Source: a virus
Taxonomy: Duplodnaviria > Caudoviricetes
Strand: one strand, 5' to 3'
Virus record (IMG/VR): IMGVR_UViG_3300033412_000476
Coordinates: 23,268-87,267 of that record
DNA length: 64,000 nucleotides
The notes below the pieces were generated by a model. That model did not search any database. It was not told where the DNA came from and saw only the letters and a program-made list of their open reading frames with translations. The position numbers were made by a program, and so were the translations under genes. Below are positions 903 through 22,100 of the stretch, in pieces (position 1 is the first letter of the stretch; each line of letters starts with the position of its first letter).

Positions 903-905
903 CGA

Positions 906-2101: not shown

Positions 2102-2114
2102 CGATTGTTGCTCC

Positions 2115-2438: not shown

Positions 2439-2441
2439 CCT

Positions 2442-4620: not shown

Positions 4621-4636
4621 GTTGCTCTCCTACAGG

Positions 4637-4693: not shown

Positions 4694-5183
4694 TCAAGAC
4701 CGGTCGCACGATGAAGCCGTACGCGTCGAGCGCTGCAGCTTCACTCGCGGTCACACGGAAGACTTCGCCTGCGCGCAGCTGGGCAACGATCCACATCGCG
4801 GGCTCAATGCCGAGCCCGCTGCAAACCCGCAGCAGTGTCGCGACGTAAGCTTCGTGTTGCTCGCGGTCGAGCGGCAGCGCGACGACCTCCCAAGTGCACT
4901 CGATTACCGGCGGGCGTTTCGCAAACCAGCGCCCGAGCTCCGCTGCACTCGGCTGCCTGGGATTTGTCGTGAGGGCGATGAGCCGCTCGCGGGCTTCCGC
5001 TTCTAGCGCGCGGTTCTTCTCGTCGAGCGCTTCTAGCAGCGCATCCGCGCACGCGACCGCGGTACGTTCAACGCTGTCGTCTGCTGAGCCCGTCGCGTGA
5101 CCCAAGATGTATGGTTGCCGCACCGTCGGATCCTCGAGCAGTAGCTTGAAGATCTCGAGCGCGAAGCGTTCACGTGTTTCCAT
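4677..5183 (-). CDS. hypothetical protein
   Basis: METRERF start at 5183 after GGAAGG. Confidence 0.55.
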   Translation of the reverse strand: METRERFALEIFKLLLEDPTVRQPYILGHATGSADDSVERTAVACADALLEALDEKNRALEAEARERLIALTTNPRQPSAAELGRWFAKRPPVIECTWEVVALPLDREQHEAYVATLLRVCSGLGIEPAMWIVAQLRAGEVFRVTASEAAALDAYGFIVRPVLKNMPG

Positions 5184-5190
5184 CAGAGCG

Positions 5191-5583
5191 CTACCTTCCT
5201 GGTTCCATGCGAGCATAGTAGTGGCCATCGGGGAGAATCGAGACCAGGCGAATCAGACATGCACGAGACAGGATGCGCGCGGTCCTGATCTGTTGACCTC
5301 GTACCGGCGCAGATGCTTTCGGATCAGCCGGCAACGACTGAAGTAACGCCGTCTGTGCAGGCGTGAGCCTAGGCGCTGTACCGCGCGAACGCCGCGCGCT
5401 GTACTGCGGGCTTTGACCCCGCAGCTTGTTGGCGAGCGCGCGGGCTGCGCCGAGCGTCAAGCCCCCGCGGACGTGCAGTGCGCCGATGACGTCGTCGTGG
5501 CTCAGCGACTCGAGCGCGGCGAGTATCGCGCCAACGTCCTTTCGATTCAGTGGGATCACTTCGTTGGGTGTTTGCGAGCTCAC
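5191..5583 (-). CDS. hypothetical protein, possible C-terminal winged-helix
   Basis: GTG at 5583 overlaps helicase stop; LTPAQTALLQSL...RILSRACLI pattern. Confidence 0.4.
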   Translation of the reverse strand: MSSQTPNEVIPLNRKDVGAILAALESLSHDDVIGALHVRGGLTLGAARALANKLRGQSPQYSARRSRGTAPRLTPAQTALLQSLPADPKASAPVRGQQIRTARILSRACLIRLVSILPDGHYYARMEPGR

Positions 5584-7133
5584 TTCACGTCCCCGTCGAG
5601 CCACACCAGCTCATGCTTGGCGCGCGTGATGGCGACGTAGCGGATGTTCTCTTCTTCGGTGCCTTCACGCCAGGTCGTGGTCTCGCCGCGGCTCTTGCAG
5701 AAGGTCGCCGAGAGCAGCCACACGCGGCCAGCCTCGAGCCCCTTGGCGCGGTGGACGGTCGACAGCATGATCACGCTGCTGACGTCGTCGCCGGTGAAGA
5801 GCGTGTCAAAGCGCGCGTACAGCTCCGCGAAGCTGTAGATGCCCTCGACCAAGGCCGTGATGACCGCGCGGTTGTCTCCTGCGATCTCGATGGCGGTCTC
5901 GCCGGTGCTCGGGTCGATCTCGCCGCGCTCGACGCGCTTGTTGATGACTCGGATCTCAGCGTCGAGCTGTCGGTCGAGCTCCGCGAGCAACCCATCGATG
6001 TTGCGCACGCCCGAGCGCTCCACACTCTCGACCTGCTTGCGCAAGCCTTGGCTGAGGTCACGGCCGCGGATGCGCGCGGCCTTGCCGTTCTTGAGCAGCG
6101 TGAGCGCTGCAGGCACGAGCGGGGCGTTGGTACGGCTGAGCACGAAATCGCCCGGACCAGCTTCGCGCACGAGCGTGTCGCGTACGTCGAGTGCGTGGCG
6201 CACGATGCCGACCGGCGCGGTCGCCGCTGCAACGAAGTCGAGGACCAACTTCACAGCCTCGGCCACGACTGCTTGCGGGCAGCGATAGGTGGTCTTCAGG
6301 CCCAGCTCGACAGCTTGGAGCGAGCCCTTCATGCGATCGAGTGCGCTCGCGTCCGCCCCGCGCCAGCTGTAGAGACACTGCCTGTCGTCGCCGATCACGC
6401 ACACTCGGCCCTCCGGCCGCGTCGCCTTGGTTGCCAGCTCGAGCTGTGCCGCGGACATGTCCTGCGCTTCGTCAACGCACACGAGGTCATAGCGGCCGAA
6501 CACCATCCCGTGCACGAGCGGCAGGAAGATCATGTCCGAGAAGTCGATCGTGTCGGTCCGGTCGGCGGCGATCTCGGCAGCATCGAGCGCCCACTGCGCG
6601 ACTGCGCCGTCAGTCCAGCCCCGATCTTCGTCGAAGTCCTCGCTCGGCAGCAGGTGACCGTAATCGAACGCCATCTGCGTGACGGTGTCCCATGCGCCGT
6701 CGTCAGCGTACGCGCGGCCCTTGTCGGTGTCCCAGTACACCAGGTGTGGCTTGATCTCGCGGATCTTGGTGCACAGCTCGGCAACGCAGCGCAGGACCGA
6801 CTGAGGGGCGTTCTTGGGCACTACGGCCTTGGCCAAGGACCACTTGCGGCGGTTGTCGACGTTGAGCTTGGGCCACGCGCGCCGCAGGTACGAGAACCCC
6901 AGGCCGTGCAGCGTCTTAGCCTCGGCGCGCGGGTTGGTCAGCCGCGACTGCAGCTCATCGGCGATGATCTTGTTGAACGCCGCGAGCAAGATCCGGCGCT
7001 CGGGCGCACGCGAAATCCCCTCGATGATCGTCGTCGTCTTGCCCGTGCCAGCGCGAGCGCGAATCACCAGGTTGCCCTTGCCCTCGGCAAACCAGCGGAA
7101 GATGTCGTTTTGCTCGGGGCTCCAAGTCTTCAC
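5580..7133 (-). CDS. superfamily 1 UvrD/Rep-like helicase
   Basis: Walker A ARAGTGKTT, VDEAQD, GDDRQCLYSWRGA, TYRCP, STVHRAKGLEA, YVAITRAK; likely GTG start at 7133 after GAGGGAG. Confidence 0.92.
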   Translation of the reverse strand: MKTWSPEQNDIFRWFAEGKGNLVIRARAGTGKTTTIIEGISRAPERRILLAAFNKIIADELQSRLTNPRAEAKTLHGLGFSYLRRAWPKLNVDNRRKWSLAKAVVPKNAPQSVLRCVAELCTKIREIKPHLVYWDTDKGRAYADDGAWDTVTQMAFDYGHLLPSEDFDEDRGWTDGAVAQWALDAAEIAADRTDTIDFSDMIFLPLVHGMVFGRYDLVCVDEAQDMSAAQLELATKATRPEGRVCVIGDDRQCLYSWRGADASALDRMKGSLQAVELGLKTTYRCPQAVVAEAVKLVLDFVAAATAPVGIVRHALDVRDTLVREAGPGDFVLSRTNAPLVPAALTLLKNGKAARIRGRDLSQGLRKQVESVERSGVRNIDGLLAELDRQLDAEIRVINKRVERGEIDPSTGETAIEIAGDNRAVITALVEGIYSFAELYARFDTLFTGDDVSSVIMLSTVHRAKGLEAGRVWLLSATFCKSRGETTTWREGTEEENIRYVAITRAKHELVWLDGDVK

Positions 7134-7183
7134 GGCTGCATACTCCCTCTGTTCAGGCTGCGGTGCCTGTTGCGTTGCCCTTC

Positions 7184-7212
7184 TTAGACGAATCCTCGCC
7201 ACGGCTATTCAC
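7184..7212 (-). promoter_or_regulatory. early cassette promoter GTGAAT-N16-CGTCTAA upstream of helicase
   Basis: Exact motif copy, no hairpin. Confidence 0.65.
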
Positions 7213-7218
7213 TCGCTT

Positions 7219-7751
7219 TCACGGAAGCAGACAGTAGCTTGCGCGGCCGACGGCGATCGCGAGCGTTGCACCGTAGAAGTCGCGGCCGTCATCGCCGACG
7301 CGCACGACCCACACCCATTCGAGCGCGACCCCGAGCGGTTCGAGCGCGACAGCCTTGTGCTGCTCTCGCGAGATCGAGACTGTGTGATACGCCTGCGCCA
7401 AGCGCTCGATCTCAGCCTGCACTTCGGCGGCGCGGTGCAGCGTCTTCACGGCAACGCTCGGAAGGTCGACCCGACCAGTGGCACGGCGATGTGTTCGCCG
7501 CGTGACTCGAGTGACCAGTCCGGATAGAGCGCCACGCAGCCGGGCTCGGGCTCGAACGCGACGCTACCGATTGCCGCCCCGCGCTCAGCTCGACGCTGCA
7601 GCGCGTCGATTCGAGCCTGCGCAATGTCGGCCCGCTTGCGCGGCGAAAGGTGCGCTGTGCTGTTACCGATCTCGCCGCCGCGCCCTTGGATCGGCCCGAC
7701 CAGCACACGACCATCCGCCAACTTCACGCGAAACCGCACTACGCCTTCCAT
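7219..7751 (-). CDS. two small hypothetical genes (7219..7449, 7446..7751)
   Basis: Coupled ORFs; RBS AGGAGG before ATG 7751. Confidence 0.5.
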
Positions 7752-7776
7752 TCCGATCCTCCTACAGCTCGCCCGC

Positions 7777-7804
7777 TTAGACGAAAACTGTTTTCGGCGA
7801 TTCA
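7777..7804 (-). promoter_or_regulatory. early cassette promoter TGAAT-N16-CGTCTAA
   Basis: Exact motif; TGA of the motif is the stop of 7802..7993. Confidence 0.65.
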
Positions 7805-7998
7805 ACGCTCCGCGGCGTCGACCTCCAAGATCGTGAAGACCACCGCGCGCAGCCGAGCGTATGTCAGCTCGTCGCCCGGCTTGGATGCACGCGCACCCAT
7901 TCGGAAGAGCCGACCGAGCGCCATCCGCATCAACACGGCGCGCTCGTCCTTGCTCAGCGAGGCGATCGCCTCCGCTTCTGCAGGTAGGCTCATGATCT

Positions 7999-8388
7999 TC
8001 AGGCCCCCCAGATCAAGCCGTCGTCACCCACATACAGGTGATACTCGTGGAACGCTTTGCATGCATCGGTGAGCGTTGTTGCGGCGGGCTCCGACCAATC
8101 GCCATCCCAGAACCCCGCGCCGTGGCCGTTGCGCGTCAGCCAAAAGTCGTGGCCGGCTTGCTCGTCCTCAGAGTGCTCGCTCACGCGGGCCCACTGACCG
8201 GACCACGTCGAGCGCTGCGCTTCGAAGAAGGCTTTGCAGTCCGCTTCGAGCTTCGCGCGAGTCTCGGGCGCGAGATCTTCCGGGCCGTAGTTGTCGTCGA
8301 TCGGATCGCCGCCGTCGTCGCGACTCTCGTCGTTGCTCGACCACAGGGCGCACGTGATGTACGCCCGCGTGAAGTCCGCGAGGCTCAC
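7999..8388 (-). CDS. conserved phage/plasmid hypothetical protein
   Basis: FTRAYITCALWSS and AGHDFWLTRNGHGAGFWD motifs recalled from a widespread MGE family. Confidence 0.65.
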   Translation of the reverse strand: MSLADFTRAYITCALWSSNDESRDDGGDPIDDNYGPEDLAPETRAKLEADCKAFFEAQRSTWSGQWARVSEHSEDEQAGHDFWLTRNGHGAGFWDGDWSEPAATTLTDACKAFHEYHLYVGDDGLIWGA

Positions 8389-8618
8389 AACGACACCTCG
8401 CGGTCAAAGGTGACCTGCAGGTTGAACACGCCGTGCACGTCGTGCCGCAGGGGCACGAGCGCGTAGATCCGCTGCGCACGTAGCGCGAAGCTGCACCGGT
8501 GCACGACCATGTCCGGGCTGCGTCGGCAGCTCTTCAGCAGCCCTTGCGCCGCTGCGCGATCGATCGGCTTGCCGTTCCAGGGCAAGCCCGTGCCAAAGAG
8601 AACGTATTGATAGCCCAC
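8385..8618 (-). CDS. hypothetical protein
   Basis: GTG at 8618 after cassette hairpin and AGGAG. Confidence 0.5.
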   Translation of the reverse strand: MGYQYVLFGTGLPWNGKPIDRAAAQGLLKSCRRSPDMVVHRCSFALRAQRIYALVPLRHDVHGVFNLQVTFDREVSL

Positions 8619-8633
8619 GTTGCTTGTCTCCTG

Positions 8634-8688
8634 CCCCGGGTTCCAGCCGGGGTTGCATCTTAGACGTTGTCTGCTTGCTCTGCATTCA
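8634..8688 (-). promoter_or_regulatory. early cassette TGAAT-N17-CGTCTAA plus hairpin ccccggCTGGAACccgggg
   Basis: Direct reading of reverse strand. Confidence 0.7.
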
Positions 8689-9835
8689 TCCATTCGAGCA
8701 GCGAAACATGCCGATCGACGATCTTCACAGTGAAGGTGTGACCCGTCCGCGCAAGCGACACGCACAGCGCCGAGAAGTCCGTATCGGTGTGGTGCGCATG
8801 CACGTACGGCTCACCCTTCGCGATACGCGCCGAGCCAAGGCGTGCGTTGTGACCACAGCGCAAGCGCACCACCTCGACAACTACGGCGCTCACGGTGCCT
8901 CGACTGCGCGCACGTCTGCGACGTCGTAGTTGACCTCGCAGCCCGCGAAAACGCCGGAGTCGATCTTCAGGACCGCGAGCACCCCGCGGCCATAGTCGTG
9001 ATACCGCACGAATGTGTAGCCTTTGAACCAGTCCGCGCAGCGGTAGGCCCACAGCGTGCGCACTTCGACCGGCGCACCGGGTTTCAGATCGAGTTGCGTG
9101 TTCATCGCGACACCGCGTCTGCAGGCACGTAGGCGTAGCGGTGTGCGAGGTCGTGGCGACCGAACGAGTCCGGGCCGGCGTTCCACTCAGGCAGGAACCG
9201 CTCGGGGTTCCTGACGGCATACAGCGGCTTGCCCATGCCGTCGGGGACGACGTCCAGCTCGGTCCCCGCGGGGACGTCGATCACCGTCGAGCGCGTGATC
9301 GTGAGCCGTAGTGCTCGGTTGGTGACTGGCATGTTCCTACCTCAGCCCTTTCCAGTGTTGGATCTGAAGATCTTTTGCGTACCGCTCGGTATCGGCGACA
9401 CTCACCCAATGCCAGGGTGCGCCCGCACAGAGTCGAAACTGCAGCGCGACACCTAGCTCAACGCCAACACGTGCGTCTGTGTTCAGCACGTCGCGCAGAG
9501 CTTGCATTGCGCCGAGCAACGTTCGATGTGGTCGGCTGCTAGCGGGCCAGCCTCTGGGGTTGTCAGCGTGCACGGGGCCGCCGTCGCTTACGTATCTGAT
9601 CCGCCAAGTGCCCACGGTGCTACCTCACGCCCGGCGGGAAGATCTCGGCGAACGCTTCCGCCTCGTCGTCGAAGTTGAAGTGACCCCATTCGCAGCGCGC
9701 TTTGCGGACAACCGCTGCGCGGTCAGCACCCTTGATCGTGCTGTACGGGCAGCGCGCAACCCAGGTGCCGTCAGGCGCTTGCGTCAAGCTGTAGTTGGTG
9801 CGGATGTACCGCTGCCGTTCGTTCGGCGTTGACAC
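8660..9835 (-). CDS. five small hypothetical genes (8660..8893, 8890..9105, 9102..9332, 9337..9615, 9620..9835)
   Basis: Contiguous co-oriented short ORFs with overlapping stop/start codons. Confidence 0.5.
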
Positions 9836-9849
9836 GTTGCCTCCGTTCT

Positions 9850-9903
9850 CGCGGGTTCCGCCGCGTTGTGCTGATTAGACGTTGCTCGTGCTCGAGGGAT
9901 TCA
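9850..9903 (-). promoter_or_regulatory. early cassette TGAAT-N17-CGTCTAA plus hairpin cgcggCGGAACccgcg
   Basis: Direct reading of reverse strand. Confidence 0.7.
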
Positions 9904-10500
9904 CCCGACCGGGGCAGAAATCGCCCCGCACGCACGTCTGCGTGACTGCGGAGAGCACCGATCCACAGCGTGAGCACGCGCCGATCGTCGGCGCAGTGCG
10001 GCCCGACGCTGCGCTCGCGATCTTCGCAAGCAGTGCTCGCCCGGCTTCCGTTGCGGTCGCGTACGGATAGGCGACTGTCACCAGATCCTTGCGTGCCAGC
10101 TCATAGCAGGCTCCGCCGTTGGTTGCTTCGTGGCACCCATGCGGTCGAGCGGCCGCGAGTAGCGTGTCGTACAGGCGCCAACTGAGGGCCTTGCAGCCGT
10201 TGTCCCGGGCTGCTGTCCACGTGCGTTTGGCTTGGGCGCGGTTCATGGTTCTTCACCACAGCGGCGAAGCACGTCACAGTAGTAGGCGTCAAGCGTCCCG
10301 CAGTGGAGTCGACCCGACTCCATGTTCAGCAAACCCCGCGCTGCGCGGCACAAGTCAGCCAGGTAGTCCGCGGCGTACTCGTCCGCAGCCCACTGCGCAG
10401 CGGCCGTAACGATCGCTCTGTGCAGCTGCACATGTGCTCGCTCGGGACCGCGGGGTGACGCCATCGCGGCGTCGTGCCGAGTCTTCTCGTCCGTGCTCAC
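9875..10500 (-). CDS. two hypothetical genes (9875..10246, 10243..10500)
   Basis: Coupled ORFs; first ends at the TAA of CGTCTAA. Confidence 0.5.
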
Positions 10501-10516
10501 GTTGACCTTCCGTTCT

Positions 10517-10572
10517 GCGCGGGTTTCCGCCGCGCGTGCCTGGTTAGACGAAAACTGTTTGCGAGGTATTCA
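10517..10572 (-). promoter_or_regulatory. early cassette TGAAT-N17-CGTCTAA plus hairpin gcgcggCGGAAACccgcgc
   Basis: Direct reading of reverse strand. Confidence 0.7.
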
Positions 10573-11465
10573 GTCGTTCCAAGGCCGACGATCGGCGCCG
10601 TCGGAGTCTTTGAGTGTGCACAGCGCGCACGGGTTAGGGCCTGGCCTGCCGCAGTCGCACGCGACCTCACGCCGCGACAACTCGAGCCCGTCGAACGTTG
10701 CCGCACACTGAGCCACGCGAGCGGGGTTGAGCACGCGCAGCGCGTCGCCTTCCGCCGACGACTCTGCGGCGCGCGTGCGGAGCACGAGGCTGCGAAACTC
10801 GCGGTAGTCCTCGGGTGACTGCGCAGTGACGTCCACGAGCCAGCCCTTGCGAAGCGTGATCATGTCGCCACCTCCCCGATCACTTCGCCCGAGATACCAT
10901 CGAAAAGCAGGAACGACCGCGCGGTATTGCCCAGCTTTTCAGCCGCCCACACACGCGCTTCCGCGATGCTGGCGAAGCAGCCCCGGGTCAAGGTCGCGAA
11001 CGGTCCCGTTGACTCTGTGGGGTGCCATTCGGTGCGACCCTCGATCGTGAACGGAATGCAAACCGTCCAGTAGCGGTCGAACACTAGCGAGCCGTCGACG
11101 TCGACCTTTCGGCCAACCACTGACGCCAGATCACCCATAGCCACAAGCACCCTCCGTCGGCCTGCCATCTTCAGTGCGCGTAGGCCAGATCGCGCAGACC
11201 CCAAGTCGGGGTTTCGGCTTCAGTCGATCGTCAGATCGTACAGGTGCTGGACGCCACCGTCGGAGTAGTCGACGCCCCACAGCAAGCGCGCCGCACCGGG
11301 GTCACGCTTGGGGCTGAGCCCTACCGCGATCGTCTCGCCCGACTCGCAGCTGACGTCGGAAGCCAGCTCGCGCGCTGCAGCTTCGATGGCCTGCGGGTTC
11401 GCTTCGCCATGCAGCTGCCGAGCATGGCAGTCGCCAAACCGATCCTTGATCACCACACAACCCAT
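10570..11465 (-). CDS. three hypothetical genes (10570..10863, 10860..~11138, 11220..11465)
   Basis: Co-oriented ORFs between cassettes. Confidence 0.5.
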
Positions 11466-11481
11466 GACGCATCGCTCCTTT

Positions 11482-11532
11482 GCGCGGGTTCCGCCGCGCG
11501 CTTGTTAGACGGGCTTGCGCCCGAGAGATTCA
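11482..11532 (-). promoter_or_regulatory. early cassette TGAAT-N16-CGTCTAA plus hairpin gcgcggCGGAACccgcgc
   Basis: Direct reading of reverse strand. Confidence 0.7.
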
Positions 11533-11886
11533 CTTCGCCGCGTACTTCGCCCAACGGCGAGCGCGCTTGATGCGGTACTGCGCGCGGACATCGGCGATCG
11601 CCTCGTCACGCGTAGCGCCGAGCCCGGTCGCAACGAGGTTTCCGCCGCGGTACAGCTCAGCGTGCCGGTAGCCCCCGGGCATACCCGGGGTGTAGGGGTC
11701 CTCGCGCACCTGAAAGCGCTGGCCAAAGCCGTCCAGCTCGCGAAGCTTCGCCTTGTCTTCGCTGTAGGTCGCCGCCGCGCGCAACCAGCGGACCGTCGCA
11801 GAGGTGCCGCACAGCGCGGTCACTTCGCCGATGTCGTGCTCCGCACTACCGGGCCGACCCGACGCAACCATGGACCCTACACGCAT
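11530..11886 (-). CDS. first gene of leftward arm, hypothetical
   Basis: ATG 11886 after AGGAGG. Confidence 0.6.
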   Translation of the reverse strand: MRVGSMVASGRPGSAEHDIGEVTALCGTSATVRWLRAAATYSEDKAKLRELDGFGQRFQVREDPYTPGMPGGYRHAELYRGGNLVATGLGATRDEAIADVRAQYRIKRARRWAKYAAK

Positions 11887-11903
11887 TCGCCGTACCTCCT
11901 GCC

Positions 11904-11957
11904 GGGGGTTTCCGCCCCGTTCGCCCATTTAGACGGGGGCCCCCGGGGGCGTATTCA
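11904..11957 (-). promoter_or_regulatory. leftward early cassette TGAAT-N17-CGTCTAA plus hairpin ggggCGGAAACcccc
   Basis: Direct reading of reverse strand. Confidence 0.7.
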
Positions 11958-11962
11958 AAGGC

Positions 11963-11988
11963 TGTCAAAAAATAGCTCTTTTTTGACA
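11963..11988. repeat. inverted repeat TGTCAAAAAA-N6-TTTTTTGACA (operator-like)
   Basis: Perfect 10-bp arms in the AT-rich divergent region. Confidence 0.8.
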
Positions 11989-12011
11989 AAAAGCCTGCGT
12001 ATTACTATAGT
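11983..12011 (+). promoter_or_regulatory. sigma70-type promoter TTGACA-N17-TATAGT
   Basis: TTGACA 11983-11988 and TATAGT 12006-12011; the -10 lies within the perfect 18-bp palindrome GTATTACTATAGTAATAC (11999-12016). Confidence 0.75.
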
Positions 12012-12035
12012 AATACACGCTTTTCTTTGGGCATG

Positions 12036-12089
12036 GTGAATACGGCCCGAAAACCGCCGTCTAATAGGGCGAACGCGGCGGAAACCGCG
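12036..12089 (+). promoter_or_regulatory. rightward early cassette GTGAAT-N16-CGTCTAA plus hairpin cgcggCGGAAAccgcg
   Basis: Direct reading. Confidence 0.7.
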
Positions 12090-12129
12090 GAAGAACCCCC
12101 GGGATGGATCCGGGGCTGAAGGAGGGCTT

Positions 12130-12627
12130 ATGGCACTGCATTTCAAGGGTGAACGGGGCGTCCAGTACGCCGGGCGCGTGCTGCGCGACCGCTACGTGAG
12201 TGACGTTCGGATCATGAGTGACGTTTGGGCTGGACAGTACATGCTCGATTGCGTCGAGCCCGATGGATCGATCACGTCGATCGCGTACATGACGGAAGGC
12301 TTTGGCGGGAACCCGGGGCTGGAGTCGTGGGAGATCGACGCCACCCCGGAAGCGATCGCGCAGCACGAAGCTTGGCTCGCGGCGCGCGAGGCTGAGCGCG
12401 TCGAGCTGGAAGCGCGCCGCGCTCGCGCGATCGCCGCAGCTGAGGCTAAGGCGGTTCGCAAGGGCCGGCGCTGCAAGGTTGTGCGCGGTCGCAAGGTGCC
12501 CAAGGGCACGGAAGGCGTGTGCATCTGGGTTGGCGACGGTCACTACGGCGAGCGTTGCGGCATCAAGGACGACTCCGGAACCGTCCACTGGACCGCGAGC
12601 AAGAACGTCGAAGCGATCGCCCCGTGA
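12130..12627 (+). CDS. first gene of rightward arm; hypothetical with C-terminal SH3/KOW-like region
   Basis: GRRCKVVRGRKVPKGTEGVCIWVG motif recalled from phage proteins; GGAGG RBS. Confidence 0.6.
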   Translation: MALHFKGERGVQYAGRVLRDRYVSDVRIMSDVWAGQYMLDCVEPDGSITSIAYMTEGFGGNPGLESWEIDATPEAIAQHEAWLAAREAERVELEARRARAIAAAEAKAVRKGRRCKVVRGRKVPKGTEGVCIWVGDGHYGERCGIKDDSGTVHWTASKNVEAIAP

Positions 12628-12740
12628 TCGCTAGCGCGTGAGCCCCCTGCGGGGCTCCGCATCCCTCGCAGCGCAAGCGCCCGACGTTGGCGCGGCGAGG
12701 GATGCGCCGGCCGGAACACCGGCGCTAGGAGGCTAGGAAC

Positions 12741-13955
12741 GTGGATCAACATGATCTCCCGCGGAGCTTTGGCCGACGTACGGCCGGTGTAGCTAACGCA
12801 CGTGCAGCAGCACAACGGCTGATCGCCGATGCGACCGCGCTGGACGGCGGTGCGATCGACCGCGCGAAGTATCTGCTAGAGCTTCGCCCCGCAACGCTGG
12901 CCAAAGCCTGCGGGATCACTACGGCTGATCTGCAAGCACTGCTCTGCGAAGCCCGTGAGCAGTACCACACCGCTGAGCACGCGCGACCTGTGCGCGCCAG
13001 TGTCAGCATGATCCGTCGGCGTGTCGAGTTTCGCGTAGCGCTCGCGCTCGCGAAAGAGATCGTAGTGAATACCGGCAGCTGAAGCGCCGTCTAAGACAGC
13101 AAACCCGAGAGAAGGAAGAACATGGCAAAGTCTACTGTGGACACAGTCCGCGGCGTCCCGTTCGCGGACATGGGCGAAGAAGAGCTTGCGGCGTACGCAC
13201 ACGGCGCTGCGCAGTCGAGCGATGAAGGCTATAACCAAGCCGTCGCACGCGCGGCACGCAAGGAAATCGCCAAGCGCGCCAAGCGCGCCAACGATCTGAC
13301 CGAGTACGCGGTCGACGGCTTCAACGGTGCTGAGTGCAGATTGCTCTACTCGTCGGCGGCATGGTTTGCGTTCCAGCTCGGGGTTTACCTCAAAGCGACC
13401 GGGCGCTCGACCCCGCGCGACGTTCGCATGGGTCGTGGGTACTCGGTGCGCTGCGCCGACATGCTCTTCAAGCACGTGGACGGCGCGACGTTCGAACGCG
13501 TGCAGTGAATACCGGCGGCTGAAGTTTCGTCTAACCACAAACCGCGCGGCGGAACCCGCGCATCGTTAGGAGAGGTCATGGAGCAACTCAGCTTGGGGAT
13601 GCTGACGTGCGACGCGCACGAGGCATCGGCACCTTACGAGTCGGATCGTTGGGCGAGCACCGATCGCGGCTGGCTGTACGACCCTGCGCACCCTAATGCG
13701 GACTACCACGGCGGCAACCTGCCGATCGGCAACTATCTCGATTACGGGCCGTGCGGAGAGCACTACCGCAACAACCCCGACGGCGCCGTGCACGTGTGCT
13801 TCACGCCGTGGTGGATCGACCCCGTGACGCGGTCGATCTGCCGCGGAGTGACAGAGAGCACGCACGTGCACACCCCTGCAGAGGCGCAAGCCTGGCTCGC
13901 CGAGCAGTACCGCCTGTGGACGGCGCGGCGTGCCGCAGACAAGGTGACGCCGTGA
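12741..13955 (+). CDS. three hypothetical genes (12741..13082, 13122..13508, 13578..13955)
   Basis: Each has a purine-rich RBS and follows a cassette or hairpin element. Confidence 0.6.
13065..13094 (+). promoter_or_regulatory. early cassette promoter GTGAAT-N17-CGTCTAA
   Basis: gtgaataccggcagctgaagcgccgtctaa. Confidence 0.7.
13505..13561 (+). promoter_or_regulatory. early cassette GTGAAT-N17-CGTCTAA plus hairpin gcgcggCGGAACccgcgc
   Basis: gtgaataccggcggctgaagtttcgtctaa; near-identical to the 13065 and 14419 copies. Confidence 0.7.
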
Positions 13956-14422
13956 AAAACTACTTGGACAAACTGATTGTACGGCGCGAGCGGAGCCTCG
14001 TGTGCGAGTCGGACGGGCCGCTCGGCCGCAAGATCACGCACAGCGGCGACATCGCGAAGATCGCGATCCCGCTGATTGGGCCTGAGGCTGTCGAAGTGTT
14101 CGTGATCTTCGCGCTGACCGCGCGACACAAGGTCACGGGCTACCACGAAGTGGCGCGTGGCTCGCTAAGCAGCTGCGCAGTCAGCCCCGGGGACGTCGCG
14201 CGCGTCGCGTTGATCGCGGGCACGCCGGCCTTCATCGTGGCCCACAACCACCCTAGCGGCGAGCCTGAGCCCAGCCCCGAGGACATCGCGCTCACGCGGA
14301 AGATCAAGCAGGCTTTCGACCTGCTCGGACTGACCCTGCTCGATCACGTGATCGTCACGAGCGAGCACCACAAGAGCTTGCTCGATATGGGCCTGCTCGA
14401 CGTTTCCGTGAAACCGGCGTGA
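13952..14422 (+). CDS. stand-alone RadC-like JAB/MPN+ domain protein
   Basis: EVFVIFAL...HNHPSGEPEPSPED...LLDHVIV with intact H-x-H...S-x-x-D; GTG start at 13952. Confidence 0.88.
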   Translation: MKNYLDKLIVRRERSLVCESDGPLGRKITHSGDIAKIAIPLIGPEAVEVFVIFALTARHKVTGYHEVARGSLSSCAVSPGDVARVALIAGTPAFIVAHNHPSGEPEPSPEDIALTRKIKQAFDLLGLTLLDHVIVTSEHHKSLLDMGLLDVSVKPA

Positions 14423-14482
14423 ATACCGGCAGCTGAAGTTTCGTCTAAGAGGCACAAGCAAGCGGCGCGGCTGGACCCGCGC
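14419..14482 (+). promoter_or_regulatory. early cassette GTGAAT-N17-CGTCTAA plus hairpin gcgcggCTGGACccgcgc
   Basis: gtgaataccggcagctgaagtttcgtctaa. Confidence 0.7.
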
Positions 14483-14499
14483 AAGGATGGGAGAGCAAC

Positions 14500-15072
14500 A
14501 TGGCAACGGACATCATGGCTTGGTGGAAGCTGCACTTGCCGCCGCACCTGCGCGAGACGGCGCCCGAGCGGCCCGAGGGAACCGACCTCGCGATCTGGCG
14601 CGAGGAGATCGACGGCAATCCGTTCGCGTACGGCTTCCAAGGCAAAGCGCGTCAGCCCGTGTGGGCCTATCGCTTCAAGGACGCCGCGCACCGTGAGCGG
14701 TTCATCGGTGAGAAGATCGCCGCACGTAGGGCGCACTTCGGTCGCAAGGCTGAGCGCGCAGCGGAACGCAAGCAGGCGACGCACAGCCTCACGGTGGGTG
14801 ACATCTTGTCCTCGAGCTGGGGCTACGACCAGACCAACGTCGATTTCTACGAGGTGGTCGCCGTCCCTAGCTCCAAGTCGGTAATCATCCGGAAGATCGC
14901 CAGTCAGGCGGCCGCTCGCGACCGCGTCGCGCCGCAGCCCGGGGTGTTCATCGAGGGCCCCATGCTCAAGCGCGTGACCGCCCACGGCTCCGTGAAGATC
15001 GAGGATTACGCCTGGGCCAGCAAGTGGTCCGGAGCTCCGATGTACCAGACCGACATCCACGAGGGTCACTGA
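14500..15072 (+). CDS. conserved MGE hypothetical protein
   Basis: GDILSSSWGYDQTNVDFYEV motif recalled from a widespread phage/plasmid family. Confidence 0.65.
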   Translation: MATDIMAWWKLHLPPHLRETAPERPEGTDLAIWREEIDGNPFAYGFQGKARQPVWAYRFKDAAHRERFIGEKIAARRAHFGRKAERAAERKQATHSLTVGDILSSSWGYDQTNVDFYEVVAVPSSKSVIIRKIASQAAARDRVAPQPGVFIEGPMLKRVTAHGSVKIEDYAWASKWSGAPMYQTDIHEGH

Positions 15073-15087
15073 GCTTTGCGCCTGCGT

Positions 15088-15141
15088 TGAATACCTGAAA
15101 ACTGTTTTCGTCTAAGCTGACGGCTCGGCTGGAACCCGAGC
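15088..15141 (+). promoter_or_regulatory. early cassette TGAAT-N16-CGTCTAA plus hairpin gctcggCTGGAACccgagc
   Basis: Direct reading. Confidence 0.7.
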
Positions 15142-15157
15142 AGAAGGGAGAATCAAC

Positions 15158-18100
15158 GTGCAACTCGACATCGAATACGTGCTCGCGGGCGAGCCGGAAG
15201 ACTGCGACCCAGCAGATCACTTCGACGACAGCGACGAAGGCGACGCCGACGTCACATGGGTTCATGAGCAACTCAGCGCCGGCAACCAGTGGGCCTGGTT
15301 TCGCGCGGTCGTCACCGCCCGCGTTACACTCGACGGCCAAACGTTCGAAGGCGTCGACTCGCTCGGGTGCTGCTCGTACAAGTCGGAGGACGACTTTCGA
15401 CAGTGCCAGTACTTCGACGACATGAAGACTGAGGCGCGCTACGCCTTGCTCGCGTCACTGCACACCGCCGTCCGTAGGGGCGAGCTTGCCGCGGTCGCGC
15501 TGACCCAGGTGACGCCATGATCTACGGACGATTTGGCGACGCAGTCACGATCGTGCGCATGGGCACGCTCGACGACGTCAAGACGATCGACGGCCGCAAG
15601 CCCGACAAGCAGGACCGCGAGGCTGTCGAGATCGGTAGCTACGTCGTAGTCCGCCAGGACAACGGCAAAGAGCGGCTCTACCACCTTGCGTTCCTGCGCG
15701 CCGACGGCGGCAGCAAAGAGATCAACGAGGCAATCGCCGCCTGCGACCCCTGGAGCCAGCCATGAAGGGTCTACGCCGGCTGAAGCAGCCGCAGATCGAG
15801 TACATCGGCCGCGGGCCTCGTGTGGTCGCGCTGAGCGCAGCGAGCGCGCTCTACTTCTTCGGCTTCGACAGCGAAAACTATGAAGCTGTCGACGTCGGTC
15901 CGCCGGCTGATCCGCACCGCTGGAAGCCGGAAGCTCGCGTGTACGAGTGCCGCAAGAAGCAATCGAAGATGAACTGAGCCTCGAGCTGGAACCTCGAGCA
16001 TCAACAGGGAGAAACGAACGTGAGTATGAACAGACCCAGCGTCACCGTACGTAACAACAACGTCCCCGGTGCGGCGGCTGACGGTGAGACGATCGTCGAG
16101 TTTAGCTTTCAGGACAGCACTGGCGGGCTGATCTCGTTCAGCATCGACGCGGAAGGCAACCCGCGCGTGGAGCTCTACCGCTGCGACGAAGGCATCCGCG
16201 TAGGACTCGACAATCTGACTGACCACAAAGGCGGCAAGCTGATCGCCGCGAGCGACATGTCGCTAGCCCGGATCGGAATCACCAAGTGAGCACCCACGAT
16301 CCCGAGCTGCTGTTCATCGCGCACTACCCGCCGGGCCCGGTGCGCACGTTCGCCGCGCGGCTGCTCAACGAGGTGGGCTGCGCGGTGCAGACCGAAGACT
16401 ACATCGCAGGCGTCGCCGAGTGCTGCGGCTGCAGCACCGCCGACCGCGAGCGCGTGATCACGCGCGCCATCGATTGCGGCTTTCTGCGCGCTGACGCGCT
16501 GCAGTGGGCGCCCCGAGGCAAACCCCGCTACATCCCTTGCCTGTTCGCGGTGCAGCCATGAGTTTCACCATGAAGGCGATCGCCATCGAGATGCGCAAGC
16601 GCGTCGCCACGCGGCGCAAGCCTACACTGGACGCGCTACGCGCGATGTCGCTACAGCAGATCGATCAGCTTCTCACGGAGTGCGCGGTCAAGGTTGTTCG
16701 CCTGCATACGTCGAAGTCGACGCCGCTGCGTTCGTACGCCTGCAAGCTCCGGCGGTTCGACGGCTCAACAGTCGAGCGCTTCGCAACGACAGCCGGACAG
16801 GCACTTCTCGACGCGCTCGACAGCGCAACAGACGCCGGCTGGTTCGGCGATCACTACGAGCAACGAAACCAACTACAGGAGACAGCGCAAGATGAGTGAG
16901 AGAACCGACAGAGCCCGCGTGGTTGCGGGCGCAATCAAAGCCAAGGTCGCTGCCTACGAGAACGGCGAGTGCGACAACGGCGCGCTCGACGTTGCCACCA
17001 ACGCGATCGCCATGCTCGGCCAGCTGGCCGACGCGGTGCTCACGCTCGCCGAAGAGCACGATCATCTCGAGCGCACGCTCGCCTCACGCACGGATCACCT
17101 CGCGTGACCAAACCCCTGAACGAGATACTTCAAACGAAGATCCTCGAGCAACGCTCCGGCGCGCTGCTGCGCGCGTACGAGCTGATGCAGGAGACTGCGA
17201 AGCAGATGCCTCCGGCTGCGCGCAAGCTGGCCGATCGCGCGCTCCTCGAGCTCGAGGCGTTCGGCCAGAGTCTCGAGCGTGAGTACCGCTCAAGGGGACT
17301 GTAGCGATGACGCTCGAGGAGATCATCGCAGCGATCGGCCGGCACATGTTCTCGCGAACGCAGCTGAACCGCGAAGTCTCCGCACGCGTGCACCTACACA
17401 ACGACGTGCTCATCGGCAGTCTGTACCGCGACGTGCTCACTGACGAGATCACGCTGCTAGTTCAACTCGGCCAAGCTTGGTGCTACGGCTGGCAGCCCGA
17501 GGAAGCCCGCGCAACGTACTACCTGTCGCGGTTCACCAGGAGCCTGCGGCCATGAAGAACAGAAACCGTTTCAGGACCATCCACCGGAAAGCAACGATGC
17601 CCGCGCCCAAGAACGTGATCTTCGCCCCAACGAGCGTGCACATCTATCCGGACAGTCAACGGGGGCAGGTTGCCTTCGAGCTGCGCAACAAGGCTAATAA
17701 GCCGCTGATGACGCTGCTACTCGAACCTGAGGGCGCCGCGAATCTGTTTGCGAAGCTCGGAGAGGCCCTCGTCGCGATCACCGGTACCGCGGACCACTGG
17801 CGTCGCGGCGCTGTCGAGCCGCAGAAGACGCAAGCGCGCTGCACATGCCCTTGCCCTGACGATCCCGACAAGCCGTCGACCGATCCGACCGCGCACTACA
17901 TCGGTTGTCCGTTTCGCGCAGAGCTCGAGGCGCAGACCGAGTGAAGATCAGAGTCAAGACGCCGCGACGGCTGCCGCCCAAGGCAGAAGCGATCGATTAC
18001 CCAGAGATCATTTCGCAGATCAATCGGGAGCTGGAGCACCACGGCCTGAGCGCGCTCGACTTGCTCAGCAGCTTCGCGCTGCATCTGTTGGGCGTCGCGC

Positions 18101-18255
18101 TGGACGTCACCCCGCAGCACCCCGTCAGCCAACAAAAGGTCTATAGAGACCTGCACTTAGAGATCAGCCGCATGGTCGGAGAGGCGCTCGACCGCAAGCA
18201 GCGTCTACTCGGATCTCCGCTGGGCAACCAGTCGCTACCGAAGGAGCGAGACTAG
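15158..18255 (+). CDS. run of ~11 small hypothetical genes (15158..15520, 15517..15765, 15762..15977, 16020..16289, 16286..16561, 16558..16899, 16892..17107, 17104..17304, 17307..17555, 17552..17944, 17941..18255)
   Basis: Nearly all linked by ATGA/GTGA stop-start overlaps; hairpin ctcgagCTGGAACctcgag at 15980-15998. Confidence 0.6.
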
Positions 18256-18283
18256 GAGCACGCGCGCGAAAATAGATTTCGGC

Positions 18284-18337
18284 TGAATCTTGTCGTAACG
18301 TCGGCGTCGCAGTTCAACCCTCGGCTGGAACCCGAGG
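18284..18337 (+). promoter_or_regulatory. early cassette variant TGAAT-N16-CGTCGCA plus hairpin cctcggCTGGAACccgagg
   Basis: Direct reading; precedes the RecA-like gene. Confidence 0.55.
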
Positions 18338-18358
18338 CGCACCAAGGAGAAAAACAAC

Positions 18359-19150
18359 GTGGCAGATTTCATTTCAACAGGGGTCTTGTCCCTCGATTGC
18401 GCGCTCGGTGGCGGCTACCCGAAGAACGGCATCGCCGAGATCTACGGCGAGATGGGCGCGGGGCGGCTGACGCTCGCGCTGCATGCGATCGCAGAGTGCC
18501 AGCTGCAGCCCGACGGCGTCACGTTCATGTTCGCGCACGGCGATCAGATCGCGCCCTTCGACGCAGTCTACGGCATGCGGCTAGGCGTCGACCCTCAGCG
18601 GTTTCTGCACTTCGAGCAGCGCAAGCTCGAGTTGCTTTTTCGCTGCCTGCGCAGCGCCGTCACCGGCAGTCATCCGCCCGACCTCGTGATCGTCGACCTC
18701 CGCCGCGGCATCGCGCGACTGTCGGCCGAAGAAGGCAGTGAGCTGGTCGCCCGGCTCTCGCTCTTTCTGCGCGAGCACTGCTCTCACAAGCAGCGCACGA
18801 GCTTGCTCTTTCTCAGCGACGGCAAGCTGCAGCCGCTGCAGTTTCACGCGCAGCAGCGCATCCTGCTGCAGTTCGACCGCGTCGCGCCCAACGACGACAC
18901 GCTCGTGCACGCGAACATCGTCAAAAACCGGCTCGGCGAGCCGTACAAGCAGCTGAGCCTGCAGCTGACGCCCGGCGACGGCGTCGATCTGATCGCGGAC
19001 ATCGTGCGGACGGCCGCCTACGCCGGTGTGCTGCCACACCAGAACGTCGAGGCGCTGTGCGTAGAGCTCCGCCGCGACAACCACGCCCGCGAGGCGCTCT
19101 GCCGTACCGTGCGCAGCAAGATGCTCTTTGGCGCGAGCGTTGCGCAGTGA
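18359..19150 (+). CDS. degenerate RecA-like protein, predicted ATPase-inactive
   Basis: ISTGVLSLDCALGGGYP..IAEIYG, LGVD, DLVIVD and VKNRLGEPYK follow RecA order, but Walker A reads GEMGAGRL. Confidence 0.85.
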   Translation: MADFISTGVLSLDCALGGGYPKNGIAEIYGEMGAGRLTLALHAIAECQLQPDGVTFMFAHGDQIAPFDAVYGMRLGVDPQRFLHFEQRKLELLFRCLRSAVTGSHPPDLVIVDLRRGIARLSAEEGSELVARLSLFLREHCSHKQRTSLLFLSDGKLQPLQFHAQQRILLQFDRVAPNDDTLVHANIVKNRLGEPYKQLSLQLTPGDGVDLIADIVRTAAYAGVLPHQNVEALCVELRRDNHAREALCRTVRSKMLFGASVAQ

Positions 19151-19434
19151 CAGTAACCCGCTACGCGCTCGTGCACCCAGAGATGGGGATCTACCTCGGC
19201 AGCGCGATGGGCCTTGGGTTCTGGTCCAAACTAGATCCTGTCGGCCAGCCTGCGGCGGTGACGTTCGACTCGGAGCAGCAAGCGCACGACGTCGTAAAGA
19301 CCTGGGACGCGCCCGTCACGGGCTACACGCTGCACGCCGTCGAAATCGCGTACGGCGTGTACGCCACCGTCGATGAGTGCGTTCGCGCCGGCCTACCGAA
19401 GTGGAACCCGTGGGATCAACGGAGCACACGATGA
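19147..19434 (+). CDS. hypothetical protein
   Basis: GTG overlaps the RecA-like stop. Confidence 0.55.
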   Translation: MTVTRYALVHPEMGIYLGSAMGLGFWSKLDPVGQPAAVTFDSEQQAHDVVKTWDAPVTGYTLHAVEIAYGVYATVDECVRAGLPKWNPWDQRSTR

Positions 19435-20081: not shown

Positions 20082-20599
20082 GCAGCAAGGATGATCGCAA
20101 ACTAGCCGCGGCGAAAGAAAAGCTGCGGCGGACGGTTACGCCGACGACGCTCGAAGAGCGTGCCCTCGTCCTATACGCTGAGACGCGCGAATCGTGGTGG
20201 GTCGACTCGCTGCAGCTGCTGCAGGCGCGCTGCCTCGCGATGTCGATGATCGCGCAAGCGCAGATCTTGCGAAAGCTCGGCGCGGATGATGACCTCTGAA
20301 TGAGGAGAACGCACGTGGATCCAACCGAGACCTTCCTGAAACTGGTCAACACCCTCGCTGAGCTCGAAGCCGAGCACGAAGAAGATCCGAAGAACCCAAA
20401 CACCGCGCGGCTGCGGAAAGAGGCTGTAGAGCTACTCGACTCGCTGTCGGAGTGGCTCGGGCGTCTCGGCGGCTTCCCGCCCAAGCTCTCCGAGCTCGAC
20501 CTCGGCGAAGGCGAAGACGAAAATGAAGATGGCGACGACGTCATCGATGCCGACTTCGGGGAAGAAGACGACGATCTTGGCGTCGACGACGGCGACTGA
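20078..20599 (+). CDS. two small genes (20078..20299; 20300..20599 with very acidic C-terminus)
   Basis: Coupled ORFs; D/E-rich tail. Confidence 0.55.
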
Positions 20600-21462
20600 T
20601 GAAGCCTCTCATCAAGTGGATCGGCGGGAAGGGAAAGCTGCTGCCGCAGCTACTGCCGCTGCTGCCGCCGCTCGAGAGTATCCACACGTACGTCGAGCCG
20701 TTTCTCGGCAGCGGCGCGCTGTTCTTCGCGCTCGAGTTCGATGACGACGACGCCGTCGTGCTCGGTGACAGTAACCCTGCGCTGATCAACGTCTACCGCA
20801 GCGTGCGTGACTCGATTTCAACCGTGACGATTCGGCTCGAAGCGCTGGCGGAAGGGCACTACGCCGCAGAGAAGCGCGGCGACGAAGTAGTACGCAGCTA
20901 CTACAACAAGATCCGCGACGCCTTCAACTCAGACGATTCCGGCGACATTCCTGCTGCGGCGCGGTTCCTCTATCTCAACCGCACGTGCTTCAACGGCGTC
21001 TGGCGTGTCAACCGCGACGGCGAGTTCAACGTCCCACTCGGCGACTACAAGCACCCTGCGATCTATGACGAAGCGCTGCTGCTCGCAGCGAACAAACGCT
21101 TACGCCAGCGCTGCGTGCAGCTGGTGCTCGGCGACTTCAGTGACGTCATCTTCTACGCGCGCGAGCTGCGCGACGCGTTCGTCTACCTCGATCCGCCGTA
21201 CGTGCCGGTCTCGGAGACCGCGGACTTCACGAGCTACACCGTGGAGAAGTTCGGGCAGGCGGATCTCGAGCGGCTACGCGCGCTGTGTGATGAGCTCGAC
21301 AGTGCAGGCGCACGGTTTATGCTGAGCAACAGCACTGCACCGACTGTCCGCGAGCTTTTTGGCAAGTACGACATTCAAGAGATCAGCCGGCGCGGCAGCA
21401 TCAACAGCGACAAGAACAAGCGCGGCGACGTCACCGAGCTCGTAGTCAGGAACTACCGATGA
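20599..21462 (+). CDS. dam: Dam-family (D12 class) DNA adenine methyltransferase
   Basis: KWIGGK, YVEPFLGSGA, FLYLNRTCFNG, VYLDPPY, FMLSNS. Confidence 0.92.
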   Translation: MKPLIKWIGGKGKLLPQLLPLLPPLESIHTYVEPFLGSGALFFALEFDDDDAVVLGDSNPALINVYRSVRDSISTVTIRLEALAEGHYAAEKRGDEVVRSYYNKIRDAFNSDDSGDIPAAARFLYLNRTCFNGVWRVNRDGEFNVPLGDYKHPAIYDEALLLAANKRLRQRCVQLVLGDFSDVIFYARELRDAFVYLDPPYVPVSETADFTSYTVEKFGQADLERLRALCDELDSAGARFMLSNSTAPTVRELFGKYDIQEISRRGSINSDKNKRGDVTELVVRNYR

Positions 21463-22100
21463 CCCGCATGACCGTCGGACCCAAGCGCTCGCGCAGCAAG
21501 GAACGCAAAAAGCCCGCGGTCTCGTTCGCACGCGAGGACTGGCTCAAGCTCCGTACGGCGCTGCGCGACGATCCCGAGCTCGAGGGCGCGGTGCTGCGCG
21601 TGATGATGGCAACGAGCGTTCGAATCCAGGACATTCTACTCGTGCGCCTCGACGCCATCCGCGCGGCTTTGCGACACGACGACGGACTCATCGAAGTGAT
21701 CCAGAAGGGCGGCAGCCGGCGAATGCTGCCCGTCGCAGGCGCGCACCACGAATGGTCCGCGCTACTGGCGCACTGCAAACAAGCCAACGCCGCAGCGACG
21801 ATCGTAGCCGAGGCCGTGTGCCCTGCCTCGAGCTGGGGCGCCAAGGGCGGTGGCGGCGCCTACCAGCGCGTGCGCCGACACCTGCAGGCAGTAAGCGACC
21901 GCATCGGCATCGACGGGCGCGTGCACCTGCACCGCATCCGCCGAACGGTGGCCACGACCGCGTTGCGGCACACCAAGGACATCAAGCTCGTCGCGGAGAT
22001 GCTCGGGCACAAACACGTTTCGACGACCGAGATCTACGTCGACGAGGCCCGCAGCGACGACGTGGCCGCGCTGCAGCGCCAGCTGATGGAGGACCCTTGA
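21459..22100 (+). CDS. minimal tyrosine recombinase (catalytic domain only)
   Basis: R in TSVRIQDIL, K in QKGG, H-x-x-R in HRIR, LGH and terminal Y in STTEIY; 213 aa. Confidence 0.85.
   Translation: MTRMTVGPKRSRSKERKKPAVSFAREDWLKLRTALRDDPELEGAVLRVMMATSVRIQDILLVRLDAIRAALRHDDGLIEVIQKGGSRRMLPVAGAHHEWSALLAHCKQANAAATIVAEAVCPASSWGAKGGGGAYQRVRRHLQAVSDRIGIDGRVHLHRIRRTVATTALRHTKDIKLVAEMLGHKHVSTTEIYVDEARSDDVAALQRQLMEDP

Follow-up and report, generated by a model that had tools for sequence, protein, structure and literature searches.

The 64,000-nucleotide stretch of viral DNA analyzed here (called the window below) covers positions 23,268 to 87,267 of an 87,267-bp IMG/VR virus record (IMGVR_UViG_3300033412_000476) and carries on its + strand, at 18359-19150, an open reading frame (ORF) for a 263-amino-acid protein, plus stop, that is a genuine homolog of RecA. 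The ORF was found exactly where the original prediction, made by a model from the letters alone, had placed a catalytically dead, loop-less RecA and candidate inhibitor of RecA and the SOS response. Its start codon is a GTG with a Shine–Dalgarno sequence (AAGGAG, 18344-18349) 9 nt before it. We take this GTG, and not the downstream TTG used by some gene callers (254-amino-acid product), to be the true start, because the first residues of the protein, DFISTGVLSLD, align with both of its full-length relatives and with RecA. An in-frame stop codon lies 20 codons 5' of the GTG (18296-18298) with no start codon in between, and thus there is no room for the N-terminal polymerization helix of RecA, which had also been described as absent.

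The similarity to RecA lies far beyond chance. The Pfam RecA family (PF00154) matches residues 3-113 with an expectation value (E) of 3.1e-16 and 60 bits against a cut-off of 27, which places the protein in the RecA superfamily; the PHROG 97 “UvsX-like recombinase” profile matches at E 2e-13, E. coli RecA chains are matched by phmmer at E ~1e-14, and tblastn against phage RecA genes gives 25-29% identity over 85-96% of the length. Identity to bacterial RecA is 24-26% over the whole length. The RecA equivalog model TIGR02012 scores 68.8 bits against a cut-off of 325.3, so the protein is not a RecA recombinase proper, and Pfam Rad51, at 20.3 bits, falls under its cut-off of 22. No non-RecA family of Pfam matched at E <=1, the PADLOC defense models gave nothing better than E 0.018, an ESM Atlas search returned only generic RecA/KaiC clusters, and megablast of the DNA found no match to known phages.

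A phmmer search over 1.84 billion representative proteins recovered two full-length relatives and one fragment, everything else being ordinary RecA. The full-length relatives, P0016 (260 amino acids) and P0017 (266 amino acids), are 45% and 42% identical to the query. The score drops from 431 bits for the family, or 149 for the fragment, to 114 bits for the first of the ordinary RecAs. The family consists of four clusters, one of them the fragment, in three lineages, and no further members were found by a profile search of 5.8 billion clusters or by pattern scans of IMG/VR, JGI metagenome contigs, and GTDB genomes. Near-identical copies lie on contigs of 87,028 and 54,615 bp, with at most two residues changed. 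P0016 is encoded on an 87.8-kb virus contig with an identical gene order around the RecA-like gene: small genes, the RecA-like gene, small genes, the J-domain-like phrog_9210, an acidic protein, a D12 methylase, and a short tyrosine recombinase. The family is thus virus-borne and restricted to a small clade of related ~87-kb soil viruses. Three sequencing runs, all of DNA from soil metagenomes, contain most of the stretch and are possibly its source samples; no RNA dataset was among the listed runs containing it.

Structure prediction, one of the checks originally suggested, returned a confident RecA fold. The AlphaFold2 model of the 263-amino-acid protein, which leans on the RecA sequences that dominate its input alignment (the family plus 54 RecAs), has a predicted local distance difference test (pLDDT) value of 93.4 and a predicted template modeling (pTM) score of 0.90. 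Its top structural matches in Foldseek are bacterial RecAs, with template modeling (TM) scores of 0.83-0.84, and VIA-align superimposes 245 residues on E. coli RecA residues 36-328 with a Z of 27.5, a root mean square deviation of 2.5 Å, and 24% identity. Rad51, the Rad51 paralogs, RadB, and UvsX rank after RecA at Z 19-21, and all except UvsX align over the core only; the C-terminal lobe of the model is well covered by bacterial RecA alone. The bacterial RecA match exceeds those of Rad51, RadB, and UvsX by about 3-6 Z units. Models of viral RecA/UvsX proteins are farther away (TM <=0.78, 12-18% identity). With bacterial RecAs as the best structural matches and viral RecA/UvsX more distant, we conclude that the protein descends from a bacterial-type RecA.

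Features were compared between the three full-length family members and 54 RecA homologs in motif-anchored E. coli RecA numbering, and family states are given in the order query, P0016, P0017. The features of the protein lie on the DNA as follows.

18446-18469, + strand: degenerate Walker A, residues 30-37, GEMGAGRL (GPESSGKT in RecA; from the alignment)
18533-18562, + strand: segment AHGDQIAPFD, residues 59-68, replacing the RecA DAEH that bears the catalytic Glu96 (from the alignment)
18605-18622, + strand: acceptor-strand equivalent LHFEQR, residues 83-88 (L-C-S-Q-P-D, 115-120, in RecA; from the alignment)
18746-18754, + strand: deletion of 12 residues of loop L1, around V130-A131-R132, the same gap in all three full-length members
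18815-18829, + strand: deletion of 15 residues of loop L2, with a short turn S153-D-G-K-L157 in its place (from the alignment, all three full-length members)
18953-19027, + strand: residues 199-223, where the family is most strongly conserved, with columns invariant in four sequences running on end: LSLQ-x-TPGDGVD...D-x-VR-x-AAY-x-G
18989-19144, + strand: reduced C-terminal lobe, residues 211-262, three helices in the secondary structure of the model (the RecA alignment reaches residue 328)

At the nucleotide site, the Walker A motif reads GEMGAGRL, GCDGVGKT, and GLRGSGRS, so that the query does not match GxxxxGK[ST]. K72, a Lys in 53 of the 54 RecAs, is R, K, and R, and the T73 position is L, T, and S (R36 and L37 in the query), in agreement with the claim of a Walker A lacking both Lys and Thr. 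As the motif exists in three states (GKT, GRS, and GRL), nucleotide binding is not under common constraint; it is decaying in the family and probably not needed. The reported loss of the DAEH catalytic region is likewise borne out: E96, a Glu in 47 of the 54 RecAs, is I, R, and N, and the segment has no conserved acidic residue (HMMER alone pairs D62 of the query with E96, and D62 is not kept in the relatives). We also observe losses beyond those originally described. The γ-phosphate sensor Q194 (Gln in 48 of 54 RecAs) is D, G, and S or a gap, depending on the alignment, and Gln in no member; S145 (Ser in 47 of 54) is Leu in all three; and Y264 (aromatic in 47 of 54), which we take to stack on adenine, is Pro in all family members. 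The Q118-P119 acceptor strand and the β-hairpin of the C-terminal domain are further additions to the list. From the loss of E96 and Q194 and the varying Walker A, ATP hydrolysis is predicted to be excluded.

The surfaces for DNA and for neighboring protomers are affected as well. The RecA loops that bind single-stranded DNA (ssDNA), L1 (157-164) and L2 (195-209), had been called largely deleted, and 12 and 15 residues are indeed gone from all three full-length members; around the L2 site the model has a strand (148-153) followed by a helix (158-163). With L1 and L2 deleted, RecA-type ssDNA binding would not be possible. The protein starts at the equivalent of RecA residue ~37-38, and the ~36 N-terminal residues with the α-β oligomerization motif are absent in all three. 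On the opposite, accepting side, the C117/S118/Q119 strand reads H-F-E in the query and V-T-A and a gap in the relatives; Q118, present in 46 of the 54 RecAs, and P119, present in 49, are lost from every full-length member. In engineered RecA, deletion of residues 1-30 stops oligomerization at one end and the C117M/S118V/Q119R substitutions stop it at the other (bioRxiv 10.1101/2022.09.30.510415). The acidic tail of RecA is absent too. What the family retains are G66, G71, D100, Y103, the LGVD sequence, the Walker B acid (D, D, and E), P254, and G265-x-G267, together with the interface elements F217 (F, Y, and Y), R222 (R in all), and, in part, K248-N-K250. The core and the KNRL/PYK region near the C-terminus had been expected to persist, and VKNRLGEPYKQ in the query corresponds to the K248-N-K250...P254-F-K motif of RecA.

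We conclude from the sequence that the protein is a RecA-derived pseudoenzyme, which should not be able to serve as recombinase, co-protease, or filament former. With no catalysis, no DNA loops, and no polymerization, it could act only through protein contacts, most likely as a monomer. Two specific forms of inhibition were rejected on these grounds. LexA, UmuD, lambda CI, and DinI bind the L2 loop of RecA (F203) and a groove over five to six protomers (PMC9926225); lacking L2 and unable to polymerize, the RecA-like protein cannot be a co-protease or decoy for LexA-type targets, and it is unlikely to act directly on LexA or on phage repressors, since the L2 binding site is deleted. Similarly, the acceptor surface of a RecA filament is exposed at its 3' end only (PMC6511836), and filament capping, as the original prediction had proposed, would at the growing end need the donor N-terminal α-β motif that is missing here, which rules this form of capping out. 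At most, the protein could bind the N-terminus of a RecA monomer or that of the 5'-terminal protomer, and its altered acceptor strand makes even that uncertain. The inhibitor reading of the original prediction is therefore only partly supported.

Several lines of evidence suggest that the gene is maintained and not drifting. The three full-length members have 260-266 codons, share the same deletions, contain no stops or frameshifts, and are 41-45% identical to one another. Identity between RecA-like orthologs (43-45%) falls within the range of the other genes shared by the two viruses (35-79%), among the more divergent of them. For the distant pair, the Nei-Gojobori ratio of nonsynonymous to synonymous substitution (dN/dS) is 0.55 for the RecA-like gene; the Dam methylase next to it has 0.52 and phrog_9210 has 0.63. 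These values are comparative only, because synonymous sites are saturated and biased in GC content at third codon positions. The family-specific conserved stretch, residues 199-255 (LQxTPGDGVD..D.VRxAAYxG...C..L...ARE...R.K), lies where the core meets the C-terminal lobe. Two cysteines, C141 (codon 18779-18781) and C234 (codon 19058-19060), are invariant in every family member. C141 sits at the end of a long core helix and C234 in the C-terminal lobe, and the two may mark a core-lobe contact or a redox or metal site.

The RecA-like gene is preceded by a 103-nt gap, which holds two elements in the following order.

18284-18308 (to 18311 with GCA), + strand: promoter-like cassette TGAAT-N16-CGTC(GCA), 51-75 nt upstream of the start codon
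18319-18337, + strand: hairpin in the presumed 5' leader, a 6-bp stem CCTCGG/CCGAGG around the loop CTGGAAC

Aligned with five other cassettes, the first element is a variant of a repeated TGAAT-N16/17-CGTCTAA element found in both early arms of the genome. The shorter form TGAAT-N16/17-CGTC has 16 matches in the window against 1.08 expected, a number reached in 0 of 100 shuffles; 13 of these sites lie within 7187-18308 and the others at 43100, 44022, and 56007. The cassettes mark gene starts on both divergent arms, pointing away from a consensus sigma-70 promoter at 11983-12011. A related virus (L002) has 9 cassettes in 16.8 kb against 0.27 expected (sites 238-7939), and there TGAAT-N16-CGTCGCA at 7915-7942 stands in front of the RecA-like ortholog, in the same CGTCGCA variant. 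The gene had been said to be driven by its own early cassette; the cassette of its own stands, conserved in the related virus, whereas “early” is a deduction. A private, conserved cassette in the gap before the gene argues that it heads its own transcription unit. The virus encodes a sigma-factor-like gene (record coordinates 10582-11160), whose product may read the TGAAT-N16/17-CGTC cassettes. Hairpins with the same loop also follow the cassettes at 15109, 14459, and 13538, with stems that have changed yet are still complementary. Many cassettes of the + arm are followed by a hairpin with the constant loop CTGGAAC/CGGAAC, and the related virus has the same system.

Our preferred reading, to which we give a probability of roughly 0.35, is that the protein is a non-productive binder of the host RecA system. 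The gene has a promoter-like element of its own and stands first in a sub-operon of genes for host-directed functions and DNA transactions. Its product would form a non-productive 1:1 complex with monomeric RecA, or with some other protein whose usual docking site is RecA, and would thereby dampen the assembly of RecA filaments on viral ssDNA and, in turn, SOS induction and host recombination. The probable binding surface would be the junction between core and C-terminal lobe (~199-255) together with the F217/R222 element, and not the canonical acceptor strand for the RecA N-terminus. ImuA and RecA1 of M. xanthus are reported to work in this manner: bound by ImuA, RecA1 is prevented from binding DNA and from carrying out strand exchange (bioRxiv 10.1101/2020.12.14.422803). 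The host RecA system is favored as partner because of the descent from bacterial RecA, the dedicated promoter-like element, the kept F217 and R222, this ImuA precedent, and the lack of a viral RecA N-terminal (RecA-NT) donor. No RecA-NT-like donor motif was found in any frame of the virus (the best hit, at E 2.4, is noise), so any donor would come from the host.

A more specific version of this proposal, which we hold as tentative and less probable than the general form, is that a captured bacterial recA was turned into a monomeric anti-RecA, which forms non-productive complexes with host RecA or with proteins bearing the RecA N-terminal motif and so leaves the host blind to viral ssDNA, with the result that SOS, RecA-dependent recombination, and any RecA-triggered defenses stay off. 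PsiB, encoded on mobile DNA, blocks RecA filament formation by protein binding and lets that DNA enter without triggering SOS. By analogy, the viral protein could be a counterpart of plasmid PsiB made from RecA itself.

A number of points weigh against RecA as the target. Binding to RecA is proposed from sequence and model; the acceptor strand for the RecA N-terminus is not conserved, which weakens the simplest docking model; and the donor motif is absent, hence no capping of the growing end is expected. The neighboring genes are mostly of no assigned function and give no specific pointer to SOS control. With three lineages only, the conservation analysis is thin, and the very small size of the family limits the general reach of the findings. 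Finally, the virus has an intact Sak4-like annealase, which makes a role in viral recombination equally natural.

This last point makes a recombination-mediator role a serious rival, possible if doubtful: a non-catalytic protein like Rad55-57, BCDX2, archaeal RadB, or other dead RecA paralogs, which as a structural partner would assist the Sak4-like annealase of the virus, or RecA of the host, in loading onto viral DNA or acting there while recombination-dependent replication or repair proceeds. Upstream of the window, a module for replication and recombination encodes a RecD2-like helicase (record 184-1863), the Sak4-like annealase (2695-3612; intact P-loop GATGTGKT, phrog_124 at 2e-30, Pfam AAA_24), and a DNA polymerase A fused to a uracil-DNA-glycosylase-superfamily domain (5140-8106). 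The real start of the annealase is probably Met at residue 57 of its ORF. This equipment, to which the UvrD-like helicase of the window can be added, favors a mediator, as do the structural neighbors that follow RecA, namely Rad51, the Rad51 paralogs, and RadB at Z 20-21. However, the RecA-like gene belongs to another transcription arm, ~39 kb away from the Sak4/polymerase module. Known mediators, moreover, usually keep a nucleotide site or a DNA surface, whereas this protein has lost L1 and L2 and its ATP site is in decay. Nor is there a conserved adjacent partner: among the downstream small ORFs of the three viruses none was found, and although a tightly coupled small gene follows in the related viruses as well, the three proteins are unrelated in sequence. 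In the window, this next gene (19147-19434, + strand, ~94 amino acids) has a GTG start that overlaps the RecA-like stop codon (GTGA). A link with the J-domain-like phrog_9210 neighbor was not found either, as the only other viral contig with phrog_9210 has no RecA-family gene.

Somewhat less likely is a re-use of the RecA fold for binding something unrelated to the RecA pathway, such as a host division, replication, or defense protein. SulA, which has a RecA-like fold and binds FtsZ, is an example of such re-use. The most conserved surface of the family, residues 199-255 with the invariant C141 and C234, is family-specific and not a known RecA interface, both canonical oligomerization surfaces are altered, and the operon consists of small virus-specific genes. 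Against this, neither SulA nor any other non-RecA Pfam family matches at E <=1, PADLOC offers nothing, and the protein is 24-26% identical to bacterial RecA over its whole length with F217 and R222 kept. SulA is not among the structural matches listed, though it may have matched outside that listing.

An ImuA-like adaptor, which would accept the RecA-NT-like motif of host Y-family polymerases (UmuC, ImuB) and recruit or sequester them, is improbable. There is a precedent in ImuA', a RecA homolog unable to self-associate that binds the RecA-NT motif of ImuB (PMC11791113, PMC6511836), and the NCBIfam ImuA model (NF033429) gives a weak, partial match at E 8.8e-5. That match, however, is confined to residues 3-56 and, at 22.5 bits, stays below the cut-off of 150. 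The family also shows no conservation of the acceptor strand, and, unlike ImuA, the protein keeps a RecA-type C-terminal lobe. Searches for Y-family (PF00817) and DnaE2 (PF07733) proteins, and hence for imuB or dnaE2, had no match in the 87-kb record, which is possibly incomplete (CheckV 66%). Membership in ImuA was therefore rejected, which leaves the ImuA-like accessory named as an alternative in the original prediction unsupported on this test. Lastly, it is very improbable that the gene is a functionless remnant of a viral recA that once worked and is now decaying, for while the progressive loss of catalytic motifs, the three states of Walker A, the position among the more divergent shared genes (43-45% identity), and the fairly high apparent dN/dS of 0.55 would fit it, they are opposed by intact frames of 260-266 amino acids with identical deletions and no stops or frameshifts in three lineages more than 50% diverged, a strongly conserved C-terminal block, a conserved cassette and Shine–Dalgarno sequence, a confidently predicted fold, and a dN/dS on par with that of the adjacent methylase.

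Other genes of the virus deserve mention as observations in their own right. A RadC-like JAB-domain protein (13751-14422, + strand; Pfam E 5e-31) is encoded in the same arm as the RecA-like gene, and such domains are common in the entry regions of mobile elements. Downstream, a 99-amino-acid protein (20300-20599, + strand) has an extremely acidic C-terminal tail (GEGEDENEDGDDVIDADFGEEDDDLGVDDGD) and could be a DNA mimic or an element like the tail of single-stranded DNA-binding protein; its conserved counterpart in the related virus is 42% identical over the aligned part, the N-terminal two-thirds. Next comes a D12-class Dam-type adenine methylase (20599-21462, + strand), which overlaps by 4 nt a short tyrosine recombinase (21459-22100, + strand; 213 amino acids) that matches the catalytic domain only. 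The pair is conserved in the related virus, with a CxxCxxCC protein between the two. The window also encodes a protein with a DNA methyltransferase domain (1295-2134, - strand), the UvrD-like helicase (5580-7202, - strand), a ParB-like protein (44243-45175, - strand), and a SNF2/DEAD-type helicase (62296-63987, + strand). Since helicases of the UvrD type remove RecA from DNA, the UvrD-like gene may be relevant to the RecA question.

Dead RecA/Rad51 paralogs are known in cells (ImuA, RadB, and the Rad51 paralogs) as partners or regulators of the real recombinase. If host RecA is the target, the viral protein would represent a new means by which a virus keeps the SOS response quiet, and would be of interest to work on SOS inhibitors as a natural, minimal scaffold that binds RecA. 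If its role is instead to assist the Sak4-like annealase of the virus, the Sak4 class of recombinases would have its first described mediator. Either way, it is a compact test case for a RecA core without catalysis.

Compared with known systems, the protein is best described from its sequence as a member of the RecA superfamily that is not a RecA recombinase, an ImuA, or a Sak4. It shares the core fold and order of elements of bacterial RecA (E. coli; PDB 3CMV/3CMU, 2REB) from residue ~37 to ~328, and differs in having no N-terminal motif, L1, L2, K72/T73, E96, S145, Q194, Y264, or acidic tail. Like ImuA, it is RecA-derived and without the RecA N-terminal motif, and would likewise not self-assemble and act by protein binding. 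However, ImuA lacks the RecA C-terminal subdomain (PMC6511836), of which the viral protein keeps a trimmed form; the ImuA of M. xanthus reportedly binds DNA and has a DNA-stimulated ATPase activity (PMC11002988), whereas the viral protein is predicted to have neither property; and ImuA is chromosomal and LexA-regulated, whereas this gene is viral, with no imuB or dnaE2 in its record. Relative to the engineered end-capped RecA units, which have served to obtain structures of RecA filaments, it carries a natural version of both alterations, with the motif missing and the C-S-Q strand substituted, although those units keep their ATPase, L1, and L2. Sak4-type annealases (AAA_24, phrog_124) are likewise phage-borne, shortened RecA cores, but they keep Walker A and anneal ssDNA; the RecA-like protein matched neither PF13479 (AAA_24) nor phrog_124, so Sak4 membership was rejected, and the virus has its separate Sak4-like gene. 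PsiB and RecX are natural RecA inhibitors and functional analogs only, with folds unrelated to that of the RecA-like protein; RecX blocks the formation or extension of RecA filaments by protein binding (PMC5766188). The literature yielded no described virus-encoded RecA/Rad51 paralog without an ATP site, both DNA loops, and both oligomerization surfaces at once. In its way of working, the protein may most resemble the non-catalytic RecA/Rad51 paralogs: the Rad51 paralogs and archaeal RadB share the RecA fold, have little or no catalytic activity, and serve a real recombinase as partners (Z ~20-21 to the model), though they are cellular, usually keep Walker A, and align only to model residues 1-215. 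What sets this family apart is that it is viral and confined to one small clade, that the ATP site, both loops, and both oligomerization surfaces have been lost together, and that a trimmed C-terminal lobe has been kept.

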